This document shows positions 10-51,925 of a stretch of DNA of 64,000 nucleotides, piece after piece. Source of the stretch: Escherichia coli. Its GTDB lineage: Bacteria > Pseudomonadota > Gammaproteobacteria > Enterobacterales > Enterobacteriaceae. A program made the translations under genes and the position numbers. A model generated the notes under the pieces. The model searched no databases. It was not told the origin of the DNA and saw only the letters and a list, made by a program, of their open reading frames with translations. The stretch lies in assembly GCF_048403405.1 (NCBI RefSeq), contig NZ_CP183129.1; one strand, 5' to 3'. The number at the start of each line of letters is the position of its first letter. Position 1 is the stretch's first letter.

Positions 10-129
10 ATGCCTGGCAGTTCCCTACTCTCGCATGGGGAGACCCCACACTACCATCGGCGCTACGGCGTTTCACTTCTGAGTTCGGCATGGGGTCAGG
101 TGGGACCACCGCGCTAAGGCCGCCAGGCA
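10..129 (-). rRNA. rrfB: 5S ribosomal RNA (rrnB operon)
   Basis: Reverse complement matches the E. coli 5S sequence end to end (TGCCTGGCGGCC...CTGCCAGGCAT), 120 nt. Confidence 0.95.
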
Positions 130-221
130 AATTCTGTTTCATCAGACCGCTTCTGCGTTCTGAGTTAATCTGTATCAGGCTGAAAATCTTCTCTCATCCG
201 CCAAAACATCTTCGGCGTTGT

Positions 222-3125
<2,904 letters not shown>

Positions 3126-3318
3126 TCACAACCCGAAGATGTTTCTTTCGATTCATCATCGTGTTGCGAAAATTTGAGAGACTCACGAACAACTTTCGTT
3201 GTTCAGTGTTTCAATTTTCAGCTTGATCCAGATTTTTAAAGAGCAAATATCTCAAACGTCACCCGAAGATGAGTTTTGAGATATTAAGGCAGGTGACTTT
3301 CACTCACAAACCAGCAAG

Positions 3319-3394
3319 TGGCGTCCCCTAGGGGATTCGAACCCCTGTTACCGCCGTGAAAGGGCGGTGTCCTGGGCCTCTAGACGAAGGGGAC
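3319..3394 (-). tRNA. gltT: tRNA-Glu (UUC) in the 16S-23S spacer
   Basis: Reverse complement reads GTCCCCTTCGTCTAGAGGCCCAGGACACCGCCCTTTCACGGCGGTAACAGGGGTTCGAATCCCCTAGGGGACGCCA, the canonical E. coli tRNA-Glu with encoded CCA. Confidence 0.95.
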
Positions 3395-3479
3395 GTATCA
3401 GTCTGCTTCGCAAGACGCCTTGCTTTTCACTTTCTATCAGACAATCTGTGTGAGCACTGCAAAGAACGCTTCTTTAAGG

Positions 3480-5021
<1,542 letters not shown>

Positions 5022-8044: not shown

Positions 8045-8285
8045 AGCATCCACAATAGAAGAAGGATGCCGCAGGTTTCATCAATATTACGCGATGATGA
8101 GAACCAGATGCGACGTTAGCCGGCAGGTCTTCGGGCTTGGAGGGGTATCTAAGATACTAAGAGATGATGACTTCCCACCGGATGGCAGTGTCCGCATAAC
8201 GCAATCATCGCACCTTTCCTTACCGCTGCGCGTCAGCTCCAGATTTGCACTGGATTCCCTATTAACTCACAGGACCGGCGAGTGG
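8045..8285 (-). promoter_or_regulatory. cobalamin (B12) riboswitch in the btuB 5' leader
   Basis: Reverse complement of 8040-8290 matches the remembered btuB leader (…GCCGGUCCUGUGAGUUAAUAGGGAAUCCAGUGCGAAUCUGGAGCUGACGCGCAGCGGUAAGG…); the plus-strand ORF 8094..8333 here is spurious. Confidence 0.8.
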
Positions 8286-8407
8286 ATGCTACAGGTTGTA
8301 ACAAGTTACTGTCCAGACTTAGCTCACAAATAGGAATACATCAAGATCTGGACATCTGATGAGCAATCCCTACAATCGCCGCGTACTTTAATTTTTCAGG
8401 ATACATC

Positions 8408-13284: not shown

Positions 13285-13394
13285 GAAACGGAGCGGCACC
13301 TCTTTTAACCCTTGAAGTCACTGCCCGTTTCGAGAGTTTCTCAACTCGAATAACTAAAGCCAACGTGAACTTTTGCGGATCTCCAGGATCCGCT
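13285..13394 (+). ncRNA. oxyS: OxyS small regulatory RNA
   Basis: Plus strand reads GAAACGGAGCGGCACCTCTTTTAACCCTTGAAGTCACTGCCCGTTTCGAGAGTTTCTCAACTCGAATAACTAAAGCCAACGTGAACTTTTGCGGATCTCCAGGATCCGC followed by a T-run; divergent from oxyR. Confidence 0.9.
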
Positions 13395-39249: not shown

Positions 39250-40803
39250 TTACTTGATATCTTTCACGCGCATACCGTTGATCTGTTCATCCGTGATGGT
39301 GTTACCCGCTTTGAAGTAATCAACCACGGCGTGATAAACGTAATAACCGCCCGTTGTGTTACGCGCTTTCCCTTCGGTAAAGGCGGTAAAACCATCTCCA
39401 CCATCAGCAAGGAAACTCTGAGTAGCAATGTGGTAAATCGTCGCATCTTCAATGGGTTTGCCATTCAGAGTCAGCGTGATTACCCGCTGACCAACCGGCT
39501 TACTGCTGTCGTACTTCATTTCCAGGCCTTTCGATACCTGTAAAACGCCATTACTTAAACTTGCGCCGTGTTCCATCAAACTGCGTAATTGTTTACCCGT
39601 GAGATCCATCGTCACCAGTTCGTTGGGAAACGGGAAGGTACTGATGACGCCGCCCATCGTAATCGCCCCTGCGGGGATCTCATTGCGAATGCCGCCAGAG
39701 TTGGTTAACGCCAATTGGGTGTTTTTACCCGCCGCTACCAGTAAAGCATCAGCCGCCAGGTTCCCGAGGGAAGCCGATTCACCATAGGCACGTTTTAATT
39801 CAACCGGCGATTTCGCGACCGTTTGTTGCACCACTTCATCAAGCTTTTTATTCCAGCCGTCGATCACCTGTTTTGTTTGCGGATCGGGCTTCCACTCGTC
39901 GGCGTAAATGGTTTTAAGCTCGAAGTTTTTCACCGTAAAATCATGCGGCTTCTCTTTGTAGTCGAGAACCAGTTTGCCCACATCAATCCCGCCGCTGTCA
40001 GTGGAGAGGATGAGCGTATTGCCGACTTTAATCGGTTCCGGCGTACCCACATGCGCATGTCCGGTGATCAAAATATCCAGCCCTTTCACCTGACTTGCCG
40101 TCTGAATATCTTTATCCAGCGCGCGACGCACATCTGTGCCTCCCATACTGGACTGGCGGGCCGGAACACCTTCATGGATCAGGGCGACGGTCAAATCAAC
40201 CTTGCCTTTAAGTTCATCGATATAACGTTGTAGCCATTTAATTTCATCACGCGCTTCAATCCCCACTCGCGTTGCCGCAGATACCGTGTCATTAAAGGCA
40301 AATACACCGTGCAAACCTATAACGCCTATTTTCACGCCGTCTTTTTCGATGATGGTATATGGCTTATCCCAGAATGATTTACTGCTGTTCTGATAAAAAA
40401 CATTGCCCTGCACAATAGGGAATTTTGCCTGACTCAACTGTAATAATGTGTTGTCCCAGCCGTGGTCAAATTCATGGTTGCCTATCGTGACGGCATCAAA
40501 CGGCATAGTATTCATAATATCGATAATAGCCTTACCTTTGGTCAGGCTGCTGATATATGGCCCGGTAAAATAATCACCCGCATCAAAAAACCATGTCGCT
40601 TTATTTTTTGCTTTTTCTTGCTTAACCAGCGTAGTGATATTTGCCCAGCCGCCAATATCCCGTTTACCATCAGCGATCCACGGCACTTTATAAGGCTCGA
40701 CATGCGCATGGAGGTCGTTGGTATAAATGATGGTGACATCTTTGGCGCAAGCCCAAAACGGCAGTGTTAATGCGATACCCGCAGCAAGTATTTTAATTTT
40801 CAT
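39250..40803 (-). CDS. predicted secreted bifunctional metallophosphatase/5'-nucleotidase (UshA/CpdB family); strain-specific accessory gene
   Basis: 517-aa ORF with a signal peptide ([20 protein letters not shown]) and calcineurin-type metallophosphatase motifs (NDLHAH, GDYFTG, GNHEFD, GHAH) followed by a 5'-nucleotidase C-terminal-like domain. K-12, as I recall it, has no gene between metL and metF. Confidence 0.8.
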
Positions 40804-40935
40804 AAACAGTCCCTTTCAGTGAGATAAAGGATTGCTACATTACGTTCTGAAAGAGTTATTTATGTGAGAGTAATCACATCCACAGGGGAGCGTTGCCGGA
40901 CAAAATCAACGACCATGTGAAATCGTTGGTGATAT

Positions 40936-42066
40936 ATGTCGACTCTGTTTACGATTAATGCCTGCAAGTCGTTTGGTTGCCGTAATTTAGGGCAGCCAAC
41001 ATCTAAAGATTATAGCTGGCCCGACTATCGGCTGGGTTATCCGGCATTGCACTGTCGGGCATGTGGCAGTTACCCGCCGTTGTTTGACGAGCAACAATTT
41101 CGTGACTGGTTGTCAGTTCACTTATCTACTTTTGCAACAGAGAAAGGCCATTTTTGCCCGGTATGTTATGGCACAAAGACGATTTGTTATGGCCACAATC
41201 CACAGGGGTCGCAACGCATTCAATGTCGTAACTGCAAAAAAGTCTGGACACCTAAACAATATCAGAAAGAAATAACGCCTCCTGAAATAATCGAAACGGT
41301 TGCTCTTCTGGTGCCATTTCAGGGAGCCAGCAATGGGCAGAAACTGTATGTTTTAATCAGTTTTGATGCTCTTCGCGGTAATATTCTTCATCTTTCTACT
41401 AATTACACGCAGCATCAGGCTGGAGAAAGTCTGCATTATCGATACAGAGGGAATGCAGAACCAGAGTTACACGAGAGTAATATTGTACAACGCGTTGATA
41501 TGCGCGAAGCACAATTTCTACGCCGCAGTCAGTTTGATGAAATTCAGTATGGCAGCGCAGCGCTCAAACGCAATGCTAAAGGTGTTATTCTGCGTCCGGT
41601 TATCACTGCACACGGGCATTTCAGAGTACTGAATATTTTATTCCCTACAGTAAAAACACATGTAATTTCACACGAGTGTTTTTTAAGAGGTGCGATTATT
41701 ACGGCCTGGGCAGAACTGTTTCGCCAACAGCAAGGTGAGATTTGGTTTATTGAAGAGGAAATAGCTGACTATACCGATAATACGCCCTGGCGTTTTCAGG
41801 GAAAAACTTATCACGGCTGGTGGAAAAATCAGTGGCAACTCTGGGTTCAGGGCAAAAATCGTAAAATGGTATGTGCATTAACGGGCGGAAATATCAGCAA
41901 AGCTGAAATGCTCTCTTTAGCAACCAGCAGACATTTTATCGACTGGCTACATAAACAAGCAGTATTTACTCACAGCGCCCCGCTTTCCGCAGGGCGCGTT
42001 ACGCAAATACTGCTTTCTCTGGCTCAGGATTACAACAACTGCGCCAGGCGGTTAATATCCGACTGA
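40936..42066 (+). CDS. hypothetical protein with two N-terminal CxxC zinc ribbons, the second resembling the IS1 InsA zinc ribbon; strain-specific accessory gene
   Basis: 376-aa ORF; motifs CKSFGC…HCRACG and CPVCYGTKTICYGHNPQGSQRIQCRNCKKVWT (compare the InsA copy in this window, CPRCQSVQVYRHGQNPKRHDRFRGRDCHRVFQ). The remaining ~270 aa match nothing I recognise. The 3' end overlaps the metL stop convergently by 37 bp. Confidence 0.55.
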   Translation: MSTLFTINACKSFGCRNLGQPTSKDYSWPDYRLGYPALHCRACGSYPPLFDEQQFRDWLSVHLSTFATEKGHFCPVCYGTKTICYGHNPQGSQRIQCRNCKKVWTPKQYQKEITPPEIIETVALLVPFQGASNGQKLYVLISFDALRGNILHLSTNYTQHQAGESLHYRYRGNAEPELHESNIVQRVDMREAQFLRRSQFDEIQYGSAALKRNAKGVILRPVITAHGHFRVLNILFPTVKTHVISHECFLRGAIITAWAELFRQQQGEIWFIEEEIADYTDNTPWRFQGKTYHGWWKNQWQLWVQGKNRKMVCALTGGNISKAEMLSLATSRHFIDWLHKQAVFTHSAPLSAGRVTQILLSLAQDYNNCARRLISD

Positions 42067-46974: not shown

Positions 46975-47738
46975 GGTGATGCCTCCAATTAGTTGAATTA
47001 AGGATATAATACTCGCTTTTAAGGTTGTTTCATGGTCACAGTTAACCTTCATTGTCCCCGTTGCCAGTCCGTTCAGGTTTACCGTCACGGGCAGAACCCC
47101 AAAAGACATGATCGATTCCGCGGCCGTGACTGTCACCGGGTATTTCAACTCAGTTACTGTTACGAGCCCCGTAAACCGGGAGTTAAAGACCAAATCGCTG
47201 AAATGGCTTTCAACGGTGCCGGGGTTCGCTATACTGCCCGTACGCTGAAAATCGGCATTAATACAGTCATCCGAACTTTAAAAAACTCTCGCCACGAAGA
47301 ATAACGTCATCCCCGGTCGCTCATGCTGATGTGGCACTCATCTGCGAACGTAGTCAGCAATGGAGCTTTGTCGGCAGTAAAGCGCGACAGCACTGGCTCT
47401 GGTACGTGTACAACACGAAAACTGGTGGTGTTCTGGCCTACACTTTTGGCCCCCGGACTGATGAAACCTGTCGTGAACTGCTGGCGCTGCTTACCCTTTT
47501 ACCATCGGCATGTTGACCACTGACGAATGGGGTAGTTACGCTAGAGAGTTACCAAAGGAGAAGCATCTGACTGGTAAGATTTTTACTCAGCACATTGAGC
47601 GTAACAATCTGACCCTGAGAACCCGAATCAAACGTCTGGCCCGCAGAACCATCTGTTTCTCGCGTTCTGTAGAACTTCATGAAAAAGTCATCGGTGCTTT
47701 TATCGAAAATATATGTTCTACTAATTGGAGTCATCACC
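46975..47738 (+). mobile_element. divergent IS1-family insertion sequence (about 764 bp)
   Basis: Terminal inverted repeats GGTGATGCCTCCAATTAG (46975) and CTAATTGGAGTCATCACC (ending 47738) resemble IS1 ends; the insA-like ORF (47032..47304) has the CPRC…C..C zinc ribbon; insB-like frames 47331..47516 and 47510..47824 are in different frames and one reads through the right IR. Confidence 0.75.
47032..47304 (+). CDS. insA: IS1-family InsA-like protein
   Basis: 90-aa ORF MVTVNLHCPRCQSVQVYRHGQNPKRHDRFRGRDCHRVFQ…NGAGVRYTARTLKIGINTVIRTLKN, clearly related to but divergent from K-12 InsA. Confidence 0.75.
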   Translation: MVTVNLHCPRCQSVQVYRHGQNPKRHDRFRGRDCHRVFQLSYCYEPRKPGVKDQIAEMAFNGAGVRYTARTLKIGINTVIRTLKNSRHEE

Positions 47739-47793
47739 CTTCTGATGAGCTTTCCTTGGATGATTACCAGACTGAATACACAGCCAAAGATTT

Positions 47794-48117
47794 TTACCTC
47801 ATTCTGCTCTTTTTTCTCAAATGACATATATTATATTTTACATCATATTCATAGGTATATGACATTCCCCCGCCCCCCATTATGTCATTGTGGGTTGATG
47901 TTGGGCTTTCATAAAAAAATACATCTTTTTTTGAACTAGCATTAATTATATTTACTTTATATATTAAAATATTTTCTCCATCTGGAAATATTTTAGCCAC
48001 ACAATATAAAGCAGCTAAATCCGAATTACTTAAAAATATATTGTCATCACTCATAACTCCAGCCATTAAATGACTGGAGACTAAAGCAAGGAAATAACAA
48101 CATTGTATTGCCTTCAT
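47794..48117 (-). CDS. putative immunity protein for the orphan Rhs C-terminal toxin
   Basis: Small AT-rich ORF starting one nucleotide after the orphan toxin stop (TAA-A-ATG, with GGGAG upstream); predicted start MKAIQCCYFLALVSSHLMAG is signal-peptide-like. Assigned by position only. Confidence 0.5.
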   Translation of the reverse strand: MKAIQCCYFLALVSSHLMAGVMSDDNIFLSNSDLAALYCVAKIFPDGENILIYKVNIINASSKKDVFFYESPTSTHNDIMGGGGMSYTYEYDVKYNICHLRKKSRMR

Positions 48118-48118
48118 T

Positions 48119-49378
48119 TTAATTACTCCCTTGCCTGATAATTGCAACTCCATTCCCTTTAGCTTTGGGATTATATTTTAGATAGGTGTTATTTGGTGTT
48201 CCCAAGTAACTACTGTATTCTTTTTTTCCCATTCCATTCATATAAGAATTCGTTAAATCTTTGCTTGAAAAATTTAGACTATCATAAACATCATTTTCTT
48301 TTGTTACTTTATTTCCTTTATCGTCAGAGTAAAAACCGTGAGTGTGATAATCACCTACTCTCTCTGAACCTTCAGGGCATTTTATATTTCGCAAGTCTAC
48401 ACTATCATTATCATTTGAACTTATCGGATTCATAGGGAAATATTCACCTTGCTTCTTACATATTAGTCCACCATATTCTTTATTCTTGTTAATTGATTCT
48501 CCATTACACATTGCCAATGCAAATATTCCAATATCATCTATATTTTTTGATTTAAATTCATATAATCCTAATGGATCCATGCCATTCACCGGGCTCAGCG
48601 GATATGTATACAGGTTCCATCCCCCCTTCAGCCCAATCGGATCCTGAGTGATATACCGCCCCTGCAGCGGGTCATAATAGCGGTGGCGGTTGTAATACAG
48701 GCCGGACTCCTCATCATACTGCTGACCCGGCAGGCGGATGAGCTGCTGCAGCTGATGCGGGTTCTCTTCATTCAGCTGGTTACCCCATTCATCGTATTCT
48801 GCGCACCATTCTGTTGCCCCTTCCGTGCTGACAAGCGCCAGCGGCAGGCCGCGATGGTCGCAGTGGTACAGGTGGATTTTTCGCGCCGGCGTGTACACCG
48901 GGTCCATCTGGTTTTGTATCTGCTCCACCGTCAGGCCGCACGATGCCAGCCAGCGGCGGCTTTCCTCGCTCACCCGGTCAGCCAGGATTTCACTTTCCAG
49001 CCGGTCGAGCATCTGCACCAGCACCGGCGGGAACACCACACTGCCACCGTCTTCACCGCCGGACTGCTGAAGCGCATCCGCCAGGCTGCGGCGCTGCGTT
49101 TTCGCCAGCTCACCGGTGGCAGTTTCAACTCTGATGAGTGGCGTGAAGCTCCCCGGCTGATAAACCGTCTGGATGCGGGTTCTGTCGTTCTGTATTGTGG
49201 TCAGCCGGTCGCCGTCCCAGCCGTACCAGGTCACTTCCGGTTTCCATGACAGCGACATCCAGCCCGTCAGGTCCCGTTCACGCCGCCATACCCGTTTTGC
49301 CACCCTGCGGCCCAGCAGGTCGTAAAGATAGCGACTTTCGACCAGCGGCTCTGCATATTGTGTCCGCGTGTAGTGCAC
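48119..49378 (-). CDS. orphan Rhs C-terminal module (core-end fragment plus alternative toxin tip)
   Basis: 419-aa ORF that begins inside rhs core sequence (…[30 protein letters not shown]…), passes the DPLGL demarcation and ends in an AT-rich unique tip (…[16 protein letters not shown]…). The track start is a GTG; core homology continues upstream to about 49620 with no ribosome-binding context. Confidence 0.85.
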
Positions 49379-49612
49379 CAGCCGGTGCCGGCTGTCGTAA
49401 TGGTACCGGTGAGTCCGCTCATCATCCGTGCGGATAACCCCTTCCGGGATGAGGTCGGTTTTCTCCGTCAGCCTGCCGTGACGGTCATACCGGTAAAGAT
49501 AGTGCGCGTCACGGGCGATACGGTTATCCGGCCATGCGCTGAGGGGGCTGTCCGGGTGCAGCTCCGGGTCGGGCAGGCGGTTGCCTGCCGGGTCCGTGGC
49601 ATACGGGATATC
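48612..49612. repeat. roughly 1 kb rhs core-end direct repeat (orphan copy)
   Basis: Near-identical to 52940..53940 (offset 4328 bp; only scattered mismatches by eye). Confidence 0.9.
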
Positions 49613-49654
49613 AATGCCCAGGTTACATATAATAATAAGAGCAATTAACTTAAT

Positions 49655-49981
49655 TTATTTGTTTATAATGCGCTTACTTAATACAAACCATTGAATATAC
49701 CCTCCTGACAGAAAATAAAGCCATATTATTATCGCCATAATATACTTACTATCAATCCTTACGCCAATAATGTCTGAAACAGTCCCTATAAATATTAGAG
49801 CAATAAAGAATACTATGCCTGTTGGAAAACAGATTACCATCATTCCATAAGACATGAGACTAATTAACTCGCTCACATCACGAGTGGAGTCTAATAGTGA
49901 AAGTCTATGCATGGAAAAGAATAGTATTAAAAGCGATAAAGCCAGCCATATAGCTCTGAATAAAAAAATAATATATTTCAT
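49655..49981 (-). CDS. small hypothetical membrane protein with three predicted TM helices
   Basis: 108-aa AT-rich ORF MKYIIFLFRAIWLALSLLILFF… inside the rhs island; function unknown. Confidence 0.45.
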   Translation of the reverse strand: MKYIIFLFRAIWLALSLLILFFSMHRLSLLDSTRDVSELISLMSYGMMVICFPTGIVFFIALIFIGTVSDIIGVRIDSKYIMAIIIWLYFLSGGYIQWFVLSKRIINK

Positions 49982-50085
49982 TACATCACTCCGGTGAATA
50001 CAAATCTAATAAAGCGTCCAATGTTATTTCCGGAGCACTTCATCTTACATGTTTCTAAAGAATCATTAGACCAGTCAGGGCAAGA

Positions 50086-51221
50086 TTACGAAAGCCCGCT
50101 CCCCGCAAGGACTGACGCGAGATAGTTTCTGTCCATGGCTGCTTTTCGCATCTTACGTCTTAACCCTGCCTTGAATACCTTATCATTCGTCAAAATATTA
50201 ATAGCAATGTGCCGTATCCCTGAAAATAATTCTGCTGCGTTTCCTCTTCTTATTTTGCAGTCGTCTTCATTCATTACCACGTCCAGACGCCAGTGCAGCT
50301 TATTCTCCACGTGCCAGTGGTTTCGGATTGCTGTGGCGAACTTCTCAGCGGTTAAATCAGCAGAGCTGATATAATATCTGACCGTCATTTCTGGCTCTTT
50401 CTTTTGTTCTGCTATTATTGACCGAAAGGAGACTGCCACGTATAATTTTTCAGTCCTTTCCATTCAAATGTAAAATCAATAAGTTCATCAGGGACATCGC
50501 AAACAATATGAAGACGGATTTCTTCTCTGCCGTGACTCTTTTCACTAATTGCGTAACTGTCATGCTCTGGATTAATTAATTCTTTCAGCGGAAATGTTTC
50601 CTCAAAGGCTTTATTCAGCCGCCCCTGGTTTCCTTTTACAGCGAATAAGTAATCACCACCCTGTTTTTGTATCTTCTCTGCAATATCTTTCTGGCAACCC
50701 ATCGCATCAGTTGTGATGATTTTCTCTTTAATATACAAAATGTTAAGAAGTTCAGGGATAGCTGTGATCTCATTAGATTTCTCATCCGTCCTGATCTGCC
50801 CCAGGACCAGAATGTGCATTGTTGAGAACGCACTAATGACATGAATCGCTCCCCTGCGGCGACTCTTGTCATAAGAATGCCGGAGTGTTTTTCCATCAAT
50901 TGCGATGACGTCTTTATCATCTGAAGTATGGCAATCTCGCATCCAGTTAATAAAGCACTCGTGAAATTTTGCAGGACTGATACAGGATACAACTCTGGCG
51001 ATGGTATCGTGAACAGGAATACCATTTTCAAAATCACCGTATTGTTTTAAAAAATCGAGATGTGTTTCCCCAAAATCCTCTATATCTTCCCAACCTTCTG
51101 CACCCGAAATAACGGCACAAATAGTCAACAGTAGAATATCCGATAATTTATGTTCCACTTTCCAGGCTTGTCTGTAATCGGGGATAATAGAAATATGCTC
51201 CATCAATTTTTTAAGTTCCAT
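50086..51221 (-). pseudogene. H-repeat-associated (ISAs1-family) transposase, split by a frameshift
   Basis: ORFs 50415..51221 (268 aa, [51 protein letters not shown]…) and 50086..50463 (125 aa, …[32 protein letters not shown]…) overlap in different frames and together resemble the roughly 378-aa K-12 H-rpt proteins. Confidence 0.7.
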
Positions 51222-51755
51222 TTTGTTCTCCTTAATTATGTAAGGAGTATTTGATCATGTATAAGCAATAAAAAACAGCTTTAGGTAATGAGGAATATCT
51301 CAATTTTCAAACATAAAATGCGAATTATTTAGTACAAAAAAGCAGCGTTACGTGATCTTTCCCTGGCATGTCATTAGATGAACCAGTTATACAACCCTCG
51401 GAACAGAATCGAGGTCCTAAAGACGGACCAAAAGCGTTTAAACAACTATGTATTGAAAATCCATTACGATTATAAGTTCCTGTATTAACTGACGGTACTA
51501 ATCGTATGCCGTCAGGTTTTCTATTGCTTGCTCCCGGGTCATTAACATTCCAACTCCATAGGCCTTGAGGTATTGGCCCTCTATTTATAAATGTGTACAA
51601 CGGGGATTATTTTTACATTGCATATTATTACCAGAAGCGACTGGAATACTAAGCACATCATAAAAATTATCATCACCTGGTATATCTGAAACACACGAAA
51701 GCATACCTAAAGTTATGCTGTATAAACAGGTGGCTAATCCCAAGGGGATCGATTC

Positions 51756-51925
51756 CAGAAATCGGGTTCAACGGATACTGATAAAAATTCCACCTACCTT
51801 CCAGCCCAATCGGAGCCTGAGTGTTATACCGCCCCTGCTGCGGTTAATGTTACCGATAATAGTTATAGTACAGCCCTGATTCATCATCATACTACTGCTG
51901 CGGCAGTCTGATGAATTATTGCTTT
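51756..51925. repeat. degenerate third copy of the rhs core-end segment
   Basis: CAACGGATACTGATAAAAATTCCACCTACCTTCCAGCCCAATCGGAGCCTGAGTGTTATACCGCCCCTG… aligns with the main core end at 52925-53090 with many substitutions and stops. Confidence 0.7.

Follow-up and report, generated by a model that had tools for sequence, protein, structure and literature searches.

The window, the whole 64,000-nucleotide stretch of Escherichia coli contig NZ_CP183129.1 that was analyzed (assembly GCF_048403405.1), carries a known Rhs element as an insert in a K-12-like rpmE-yiiX neighborhood (Table 1). The feature under study is a displaced, start-less Rhs toxin end followed by its antidote gene, an arrangement that is well documented, common and already known. 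The sequence-only reading had called it an orphan rhs-CT/immunity module, which is correct; RefSeq annotates the same fragment as 'RHS repeat-associated core domain-containing protein; incomplete; missing N-terminus', next to the RHS element protein dsORF-f3.

Table 1. Features of the Rhs element, in window coordinates
Feature	Position	Strand	Basis or remark
IS1 transposase genes, bounding the element on the yiiX side	47032..47724	+	same IS1 in every arrangement type
Immunity candidate dsORF-f3, 107 aa	47794..48117	-	RefSeq name 'RHS element protein dsORF-f3'; signal-peptide-like N-terminus
Orphan toxin tip, 147 aa plus TAA	48119..48562	-	DUF4329 / Tox-JAB-2 (JAMM-type) domain
Downstream repeat copy (orphan rhs core fragment)	48596..49609	-	97.5% identity; Pfam RHS; open frame
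ybfB, RhsC-tip immunity gene, 108-aa multi-pass membrane protein	49655..49981	-	RefSeq; K-12 match
K-12 RhsC-type tip remnant, last ~100 nt	49982..50085	-	K-12 rhsC match
ISAs1-family (H-repeat) transposase gene, frameshifted	50086..51221	-	95% identical to K-12 RhsC-linked H-repeats
Degenerate short rhs fragment (yibS/yibW-like)	51366..51914	-	stops in all frames; RefSeq pseudogene, internal stop
Main-tip immunity gene, Sel1-repeat / YibG-like protein with signal peptide	51925..52392	-	RefSeq; K-12 match
Main rhs 3′ end and tip, K-12 yibJ-type	53100..52404	-	K-12 match
Full-length (main) rhs gene, 1409 aa	52404..56633	-	ORF; RefSeq 'RHS element core protein'
Upstream repeat copy	52926..53939	-	inside the full-length rhs gene; alignment to 48596..49609

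Much of the element has counterparts in K-12, whose elements belong to the same RhsA-B-C-type core subfamily. Positions 53100..51366 are 98.2% identical to yibJ-yibG-yibS-yibW; within this stretch the main tip, which gave no match in Pfam, and its immunity gene are ~98% identical to yibJ-yibG of the RhsA element, although yibJ is an orphan in K-12 and the same tip sits on the full-length gene in the window. Positions 50082..48588 are 97.1% identical over 1496 nt to the K-12 segment running from the rhsC 3′ end through ybfB to ybfO. The 5′ boundary of the orphan with ybfB is the K-12 ybfB-ybfO junction base for base, as in ybfO-ybfC of the RhsC element; beyond it, the ybfO core fragment of K-12 leads into the ybfO/ybfC tip, whereas the window fragment leads into the DUF4329 tip and dsORF-f3. 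These comparisons show the window element to be a composite of RhsA-type and RhsC-type components.

The RefSeq name dsORF-f3 follows the RhsF nomenclature of the Hill laboratory. RhsF is reportedly absent from K-12 and rearranged from RhsA and RhsC components, and the window locus may be the published RhsF element. The 'RhsF/RhsFI' of a 2025 NAR paper was rejected as the window locus, being ECs0604, which lies in a different island; it relates by analogy only.

The orphan frame and the direct repeat

The orphan rhs frame (49624..48119, minus strand) is open throughout, bounded by the in-frame ybfB stop (49657..49655) and the TAA at 48121..48119. Internal stops or frameshifts in the tip, which had been named as grounds for refuting the earlier reading, are absent, and translation runs cleanly to the TAA. 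Core homology breaks off sharply at 49609/49610, with AT-rich unrelated DNA beyond, and no ATG, GTG or TTG start lies upstream of GTG 49378 in the frame; as had been proposed, the orphan begins inside core sequence without a start context. It contains neither a translation start nor a PAAR domain or Rhs shell and bears the RefSeq flag 'missing N-terminus'. Pfam RHS (PF03527) was detected in the core fragment (E 1e-13), which ends in the PxxxxDPxGL demarcation motif (48601..48563), where similarity to the main gene stops.

BLASTN within the window aligned 48596-49609 with 52926-53939 as a direct repeat of 97.5% identity over 1015 columns; the copies, also aligned base by base, show 23 mismatches and, toward the 3′ end, two compensating 1-nt gaps. 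The near-identical ~1 kb of the sequence-only reading (48612..49612 versus 52940..53940) was thus confirmed, with ends off by at most ~15 nt. A third core-end copy, of 150-180 nt and 75-78% identity, lies at 51735-51914. An assembly duplication artefact has a negligible probability as the source of the duplicated kilobase: the only point in its favor is how alike the copies are, whereas they differ at 23 sites, are flanked by different annotated genes, and recur in the same structure in 214 independent complete genomes that come from many laboratories. The 23 differences and the 214 genomes already refute it.

Arrangement types and origin of the orphan

The tip and dsORF-f3 were found in 2170 of 5426 complete E. 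coli genomes, dsORF-f3 invariably accompanying the tip (2164 genomes). Three arrangement types occur at the one rpmE-yiiX locus, and every type ends in tip, dsORF-f3 and IS1. Type A carries the tip fused to full-length rhs (SE11, O157:H7, 7/2 and TUM1886); the tip was on a full-length gene at this locus in ~1866 of the 5426 genomes. Type B is rhs with an RhsC tip, then ybfB and the orphan (MINF_9A), and type C is the window arrangement, also present in B1.H1.39. Types B and C together, with the tip as an orphan behind ybfB, account for 214 genomes, six of which are 100% identical to the window.

This distribution can be arranged as successive tip displacement. The ancestral state would be a full-length rhs bearing the DUF4329 tip, with dsORF-f3 and then IS1 behind it. 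A K-12 RhsC-type cassette, consisting of a core 3′ segment, the RhsC tip, ybfB and the ybfO core start, would have recombined into the rhs core, and its arrival would have shunted the resident DUF4329 tip downstream, behind a core fragment of ~1 kb. The 1015-nt repeat would then be the footprint of insertion by homologous recombination. A second import would have given the main gene its yibJ/yibG-type tip, and the ISAs1 copy would have truncated the RhsC-type tip. Both a circular-intermediate model of Rhs tip insertion (Jackson et al., 2009) and a C-terminal displacement model, in which the rpmE-yiiX locus is listed as position 11 (PMC2935791), have been published.

The reverse direction, deletion from an orphan-bearing locus back to the fused form, was also considered. 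TUM1886 (type A) and B1.H1.39 (type C) share 8.8 kb of right flank, repeat copy included, at 99.92% identity, and their differences form clustered tracts inside the core. Such clustering appears to fit a single import better than deletion, and TUM1886, the best candidate for a deletion derivative, was rejected as one on this ground. The population data likewise seem better explained by acquisition, in which the fused form would be ancestral and the orphan the product of displacement, than by switching back.

The fused, once-displaced and twice-displaced forms at one locus, sharing an IS1 marker, make a clean natural series that fits the published circular-intermediate model. The orphan tip of one strain is the deployed tip of another in both directions, for DUF4329 here and for yibJ in K-12. 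Orphan cdiA-CT/cdiI modules (Poole et al., 2011, PMC3150448) are alike in being displaced toxin-end/immunity pairs that lie downstream and retain upstream homology, but are delivered by two-partner secretion and demarcated by VENN instead of PxxxxDPxGL. Orphan rhs-CT/rhsI modules are covered in the same paper. Taken as one explanation, covering inferred origin, present role and toxin mechanism, we hold it very probable that the feature is a displaced orphan rhs-CT/rhsI cassette at rpmE-yiiX.

Recombination and the present role of the orphan

Without a start codon, a PAAR domain or the Rhs shell, the orphan tip would be silent for delivery. The tip, catalytically intact by its sequence, may nevertheless rejoin a delivery gene if a RecA-type crossover takes place at any point of the repeat, and the retained immunity gene would protect against the ~35% of E. 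coli that deploy the DUF4329 tip. As a substrate for recombination the repeat is plausible, and the reverse deletion could proceed through it. Each of 20 simulated crossovers between main and orphan copies yielded an open 1394-aa fusion with the orphan immunity gene kept, and the fused architecture is natural at the same locus, as the type A genomes attest. The earlier description of the module as set up for tip switching therefore holds for the substrate and the in-frame crossovers, but 'set up for' states a capability only.

The two copies are separated by 4.3 kb, which include two further displaced layers and ISAs1. Of 981 sites, 10-21 distinguish the main and orphan copies of one genome and 25-46 distinguish copies of different lineages, and the main copy of B1.H1.39 is a mosaic that carries window orphan-type variants over ~600 nt and then switches. 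Mosaic or homogenized repeat alleles thus show that sequence passes between the copies. Searches with two synthetic main/orphan fusions recovered no genome that was clearly derived from a window-type locus by recent deletion; the best-matching fused loci were 98.5% identical to the window-based recombinant and 99.5% identical to the B1.H1.39-based recombinant.

The reverse reaction between main and orphan genes was shown experimentally in Salmonella Typhimurium LT2 (STM0291/STM0292; PMC3967940), where a full-length rhs is likewise followed by a start-less core-3′-end fragment with a different tip and an immunity gene. There too a direct repeat allows recombination into an expressed fusion, an outcome demonstrated in LT2 and inferred for the window. 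In LT2 the repeat spans 522 bp at 95% identity and that of the window is longer and more similar (1015 nt at 97.5%), but the LT2 locus belongs to another rhs clade with other toxins, and the window copies are set 4.3 kb apart by their additional layers. A simple deletion would also lose the immunity gene of the current main toxin; the same cost has been noted in Salmonella, where prior duplication was invoked (PMC3967940).

Selection might instead maintain dsORF-f3 alone, the toxin fragment being a decaying passenger that is never re-deployed. We regard an immunity-only relic of this kind as possible, although we doubt it. In its favor, full-length Rhs deploys the tip in ~1866 of 5426 genomes, which makes immunity valuable; the orphan lacks a start codon, and the synthetic fusion queries retrieved no deletion derivative. 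The MINF_9A orphan moreover bears H73Y in the catalytic HxH together with C62S, so orphan tips can decay. Set against this, the orphan frame of ~500 codons is intact in all three of the orphan-bearing lineages examined, the window tip differs from the alleles on full-length genes at 2 of 147 residues with every catalytic residue kept, and the repeat alleles bear the marks of exchange between copies.

Internal expression as a toxin-antitoxin-like module, from a promoter in the core and an internal start and with action inside the producing cell, is improbable. It has precedents: Salmonella rhs-CTs, both main and orphan, use internal promoters 89 nt upstream of PxxxxDPxGL and a CTG start (PMC7043789), and in EHEC, promoters lie within the rhs genes, upstream of the sequence for the autoprotease site (PMC7618764). 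The window offers an in-frame ATG at 48580 (M of NGMDPLGL) with GGTGA (48590..48586) at 5-nt spacing; a start there would yield a tip-only protein. These precedents, however, are from other rhs clades with other toxin families, and a promoter/terminator scan of 47600-50200 was not above background (8 promoter-like sites versus 5.7 expected from shuffled sequence), which makes the scan uninformative. Should the target be periplasmic, a signal-less tip made in the cytoplasm would also fail to reach it.

The DUF4329 tip and its immunity candidate

The tip had been described as a domain that could not be placed. Homology and structure searches assign it to Pfam DUF4329 (PF14220), of the Tox-JAB-2 family, with E 4.2e-16 for the tip alone and 6.4e-15 within the whole orphan. 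The catalytic JAMM motif is complete (E29, H73-T-H75 and S99-x-x-D102), and its positions are conserved among 144 representative sequences (E in 136, H73 in 139, H75 in 143, S in 137 and D in 138, the rest mostly gaps). The predicted structure is a confident JAB/MPN (deaminase-like) fold, and JAMM isopeptidases were the top structural matches of the model. NCBIfam HMMs gave zero matches for the tip, the immunity protein, ybfB and the main tip, and PDB sequence searches with the tip, the immunity protein and the immunity alignment returned chance-level matches only. Cys35 and Cys62 occur together in 24 sequences, singly in one and not at all in 113; this co-variation suggests a disulfide.

The Pfam match, the E...H[ST]H...S..D motif, the C-terminal position on Rhs and the JAB fold agree with the published Tox-JAB-2 family (PMC3482391). 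The window pair departs from that family in its partner, as Imm-NTF2-2 (PF15631) is the Tox-JAB-2 partner there (Zhang et al., 2012), with no match to dsORF-f3, and in the co-varying cysteine pair, an extra feature of the enterobacterial DUF4329 subgroup. Comparison by hhalign of the dsORF-f3-like alignment with a bona fide member of Imm-NTF2-2 gave a probability of 0.07%. Pfam was blank for dsORF-f3 even at E<=10, and a single-sequence AF2 model reached a pLDDT of 37, too low for use, for a family with almost zero sequence diversity.

The ATG of dsORF-f3 (48117) lies one base past the toxin stop, with GGGAG upstream at an 8-nt spacer. Its N-terminus is hydrophobic (MKAIQCCYFLALVSSHLMAG) and contains a signal-peptide-like segment (MKAIQCCYFLALVSSHLMA|G). 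The signal-like N-terminus noticed earlier is therefore real, and the property is conserved in Enterobacter and Salmonella homologues, which adjoin tips 71% and 54% identical, respectively, and have divergent yet hydrophobic N-termini. Among small ORFs adjoining diverse DUF4329 toxins, 8 of 9 had signal-like N-termini and one did not, as judged by heuristic reading of the sequences. The dsORF-f3 group and the immunity candidates of distant DUF4329 toxins aligned with an hhalign probability of only 53%, so the signal peptides that they share are read as parallel and do not establish homology.

Because the immunity protein appears to be exported, the toxin would most likely act in the target cell's periplasm, as a JAMM-type zinc hydrolase. 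We propose, tentatively and at less than even confidence, that DUF4329 Rhs tips are periplasmic JAMM zinc (iso)peptidases that would cleave an envelope amide bond and be countered by exported immunity proteins, and are not RNases; candidate targets would be, for example, the peptidoglycan cross-link or the Lpp-peptidoglycan link. The proposal draws on the 8 of 9 signal or lipoprotein N-termini, the co-varying cysteine pair and the isopeptidase structural neighbors. A published survey found Salmonella DUF4329-Rhs immunity proteins to be free of TM segments or signal peptides (PMC10469887); this survey and the one ORF in nine with no signal segment count against a periplasmic target.

As regards mechanism only, the T6SS literature would make the tip a cytoplasm-acting RNase or nuclease, which we consider rather unlikely. 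A nuclease role was proposed for Tox-JAB-2 by analogy with RadC (Zhang et al., 2012, PMC3482391), and later T6SS papers repeat 'RNase' for DUF4329 toxins, but the literature searched contained no experimental report of DUF4329 metal-dependent hydrolase activity, substrate or RNase action. The best structural matches are JAMM isopeptidases, most of the adjoining immunity candidates have N-termini of signal-peptide or lipoprotein type, and the cysteine pair hints at a disulfide, all of which tell against it. The predominance of putative signal-peptide-bearing immunity genes beside DUF4329 toxins argues for a periplasmic target, in opposition to the 'RNase' label, and is a modestly new lead.

As a genome feature the orphan matters little, being one more Rhs C-terminal displacement, annotated by RefSeq and present in hundreds of genomes. 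The functional lead is more useful: the widespread Tox-JAB-2 family is called 'RNase' in T6SS papers, with no supporting experiment in those searched, and its apparently exported partners suggest that its target may lie in the periplasm.

Structure of the Rhs element between rpmE and yiiX

The window lies in the E. coli chromosome, with the order metL, metB, metJ, yiiX, IS1, Rhs element (minus strand), rpmE, priA and cytR; the yiiX-priA site is E. coli rhs position 11 (Jackson et al., 2009, PMC2935791). Strain TUM14771 has an identical locus, for which RefSeq annotates the same parts, naming the start-less rhs fragment (the orphan) 'RHS repeat-associated core domain-containing protein, incomplete, missing N-terminus' and the ORF after its tip 'RHS element protein dsORF-f3'. 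Neither this type of orphan rhs cassette nor its locus is new, and the structure is already annotated.

Components of the Rhs element in window coordinates
Feature	Coordinates	Strand
Full-length rhs gene (main), 1409 aa	52404..56633	-
Sel1/YibG-like ORF with signal peptide	52392..51925	-
Short rhs fragment, degenerate	~51914..51366	-
ISAs1 (H-repeat) transposase gene, frameshifted	51221..50086	-
Remnant of another tip, last ~100 nt	50085..49982	-
ybfB	49981..49655	-
Orphan rhs fragment	49624..48119	-
dsORF-f3, 107-aa ORF	48117..47794	-
IS1	47724..47032	

BLASTN and a global alignment gave direct repeats at 48596-49609 and 52926-53939. Over 1015 aligned columns they share 97.5% identity; the differences are 23 mismatches and, at the extreme end, a pair of 1-nt gaps that offset each other. 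This agrees with the ~1 kb of near-identical sequence that the sequence-only reading had described in the two genes. Duplication by misassembly was ruled out by the 23 sites that distinguish the copies and by the occurrence of the ybfB-fragment-tip arrangement in 214 complete genomes. Upstream, beyond 49609, the orphan copy passes into unrelated AT-rich DNA. Between the ybfB stop and TAA 48121..48119 its reading frame is open, with none of the stops and frameshifts that had been named as a risk, and contains no canonical start ahead of GTG 49378; the orphan does begin inside core sequence and lacks a start context. A 13-residue motif (48601..48563) precedes the 147-aa tip. The earlier description was thus correct, both in recognising an orphan Rhs toxin/immunity cassette and in taking its repeat as a competent substrate for recombination.

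An in-frame ATG at 48580, two codons ahead of DPLGL and preceded by GGTGA at 5-nt spacing, could give a tip-only product like those reported for Salmonella orphans, which are expressed from internal promoters (PMC7043789). A promoter scan around the window orphan gave background level only. The ybfB stop codon (49655-49657) is in frame with the orphan, so that one readthrough would join both; this is probably coincidence, because the same junction occurs in K-12 ybfB-ybfO. A strong intrinsic terminator, aaaaaagcgccgcacggcgcttttttt (56748-56780), lies between rpmE and the rhs start, which is 120 nt downstream, so transcription of rpmE does not simply continue into rhs. Upstream of rpmE is an L31 leader (Rfam RF03157; 57012-57064). 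Other Rfam matches (12-5021, 8105-8294, 13285-13394 and 61676-61733) were an rrn operon (5S, 23S, tRNA, 16S), a cobalamin riboswitch, OxyS and a ClpQY promoter element, all expected for this chromosomal region. Relative to SE11, two extra genes lie between metL and metF (~39250-42066), encoding a 376-aa 'cytoplasmic protein' (opposite strand, overlapping the metL 3′ end) and a bifunctional metallophosphatase/5′-nucleotidase.

Distribution and origin of the orphan

Of 5426 complete E. coli genomes, 2170 carried the tip and dsORF-f3 at ≥95% nucleotide identity. Three arrangements were recognised. In type A (SE11, O157:H7, 7/2, NMBU-W10C18, TUM1886 and strain 405), the full-length rhs at rpmE-yiiX bears the DUF4329 tip directly, and dsORF-f3 and the same IS1 come next; in 1866 genomes a single match spanned a synthetic main/orphan fusion query. 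In type B (MINF_9A), where the tip is once displaced, a full-length gene with a K-12 RhsC-type tip is followed by ybfB and then the orphan. Type C, twice displaced, comprises the window, TUM14771 and B1.H1.39; the combined count for types B and C is 214 genomes. The 'RhsF' of the Hill laboratory (Zhao and Hill, 1995) is reportedly a reshuffle of RhsA and RhsC components, and the name that RefSeq gives to dsORF-f3 is in line with this.

Positions 50082..48588, which run from the tip remnant through ybfB and the junction across the entire core fragment, are collinear with K-12 rhsC 3′ end-ybfB-ybfO (97.1%, 1496 nt). The 30 nt that directly precede the homology boundary match ybfO but none of the full-length cores. 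The truncated 5′ end was therefore not made at this locus; it appears to have arrived with an RhsC-type cassette. The main tip, its Sel1/YibG-like immunity gene and the degenerate fragment (51366-53100, -) share 98.2% identity with K-12 yibJ-yibG-yibS-yibW, so the present main tip, which had no Pfam match, is an orphan tip in K-12. The simplest history would run from type A to B to C, with a circle carrying a foreign tip entering the resident core and displacing the resident tip downstream. This fits the model of Jackson et al. (2009, PMC2935791), in which main/orphan core recombination in a donor excises a circle that integrates via a crossover in the recipient core. The resident tip is thereby shunted downstream, preceded by a core fragment whose length is exactly that of the repeat in the donor.

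Recombination within the repeat

Main and orphan copies differ at 10-21 of 981 sites in the same genome and at 25-46 between lineages. The B1.H1.39 main copy carries window-orphan-specific variants from ~53913 to 53312 (window main-copy coordinates) and then window main-type variants, which places breakpoints inside the repeat kilobase in natural populations; this mosaic does not distinguish intragenomic conversion from imports with different crossover points. The last ~15 core codons before DPLGL (48563-48625) occur in two 13-letter forms joined to one tip, one in the window, SE11 and O157, the other, RhsC-like, in 7/2 and B1.H1.39, indicating that crossovers also occur right at the core/tip boundary. 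All 20 of 20 simulated main/orphan crossovers gave an open 1394-aa fusion, and the repeat exceeds in both length and identity the one that recombines in Salmonella LT2 (522 bp, 95%; Koskiniemi et al., 2014, PMC3967940).

Searches with synthetic fusion queries found no fused locus necessarily derived from a window-type locus. TUM1886 (type A) and B1.H1.39 (type C) are 99.92% identical over an 8.8-kb right flank and differ in clustered tracts in the core, a pattern that a single import would explain better than deletion. Plain deletion between the repeats would also lose the YibG-like immunity gene; the cost of such loss led Koskiniemi et al. (PMC3967940) to propose duplication before recombination.

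The DUF4329 toxin and its immunity candidate

The orphan tip, which the sequence-only reading could not place, matched Pfam DUF4329 (E 4e-16), named Tox-JAB-2 and characterized by the motif E, H[ST]H, S, D (Zhang et al., 2012, PMC3482391). Scanning 1.84 billion representative proteins yielded 376 relatives, many of them C-terminal domains of large Rhs, VgrG or other carriers. E29, H73, H75, S99 and D102 were invariant or nearly so among 144 aligned relatives, and all are kept in the window orphan, whose 147-residue tip is separated by two substitutions (K26E, A140T) from the alleles that full-length genes carry. Cys35 and Cys62 were both present in 24 sequences, singly in 1 and absent from 113, the pattern of a putative disulfide. 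The once-displaced MINF_9A locus (L005, 8452-9948) has a frameshifted ybfB and an orphan tip with C62S and with H73Y in the catalytic HxH, and decay thus occurs in the orphan position.

dsORF-f3 starts one base past the toxin stop and has a GGGAG Shine-Dalgarno sequence ahead of it; its N-terminal segment is hydrophobic and signal-like, as had been noted. It had no match in Pfam, NCBIfam or PDB, a single-sequence structure prediction gave no usable model, and it bore no resemblance to Imm-NTF2-2, which Zhang et al. (2012, PMC3482391) reported as the immunity family of Tox-JAB-2. The gene contains homopolymer runs (A7, T8 and G6CG5; 47850-47930), and many database entries are truncated or frameshifted variants. 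The copy in O157:H7 ATCC 43888 (L003, 8474-8796) carries a frameshift according to its annotation, although the full-length Rhs upstream of it, which bears the DUF4329 tip, is intact.

Homologues in Enterobacter and Salmonella immediately follow tips of 71% and 54% identity, with conserved mature parts and N-termini that have diverged yet are hydrophobic and signal-like. Six distant DUF4329 toxins were sampled, comprising full-length Rhs of 1526 and 1555 aa, an Rhs of 1386 aa, a VgrG fusion and two shorter proteins. By heuristic reading of N-termini, five of them adjoin a small ORF with a signal or lipoprotein signal, in one case only once the called ORF was extended upstream; a Pfam Imm-NTF2-2 protein adjoining one such toxin likewise has a signal. 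Imm65, the Tox-JAB-1 partner, is a lipoprotein (Zhang et al., 2012, PMC3482391). However, a Salmonella SPI-6 survey described DUF4329-Rhs immunity proteins that have neither TM segments nor signal peptides (PMC10469887), which counts against a periplasmic site. A periplasmic target is a reasonable but tentative reading, of less than even probability; it would imply that the toxin is a peptidase and not an RNase. The three immunity-type genes of the element are all envelope-directed (dsORF-f3 by its signal-like N-terminus, YbfB as a multi-pass membrane protein and the YibG-like protein by a clear signal peptide), which suggests that all three stacked tips may have envelope targets. Only the biochemistry of the DUF4329 toxin family, and where its members act, could repay work.
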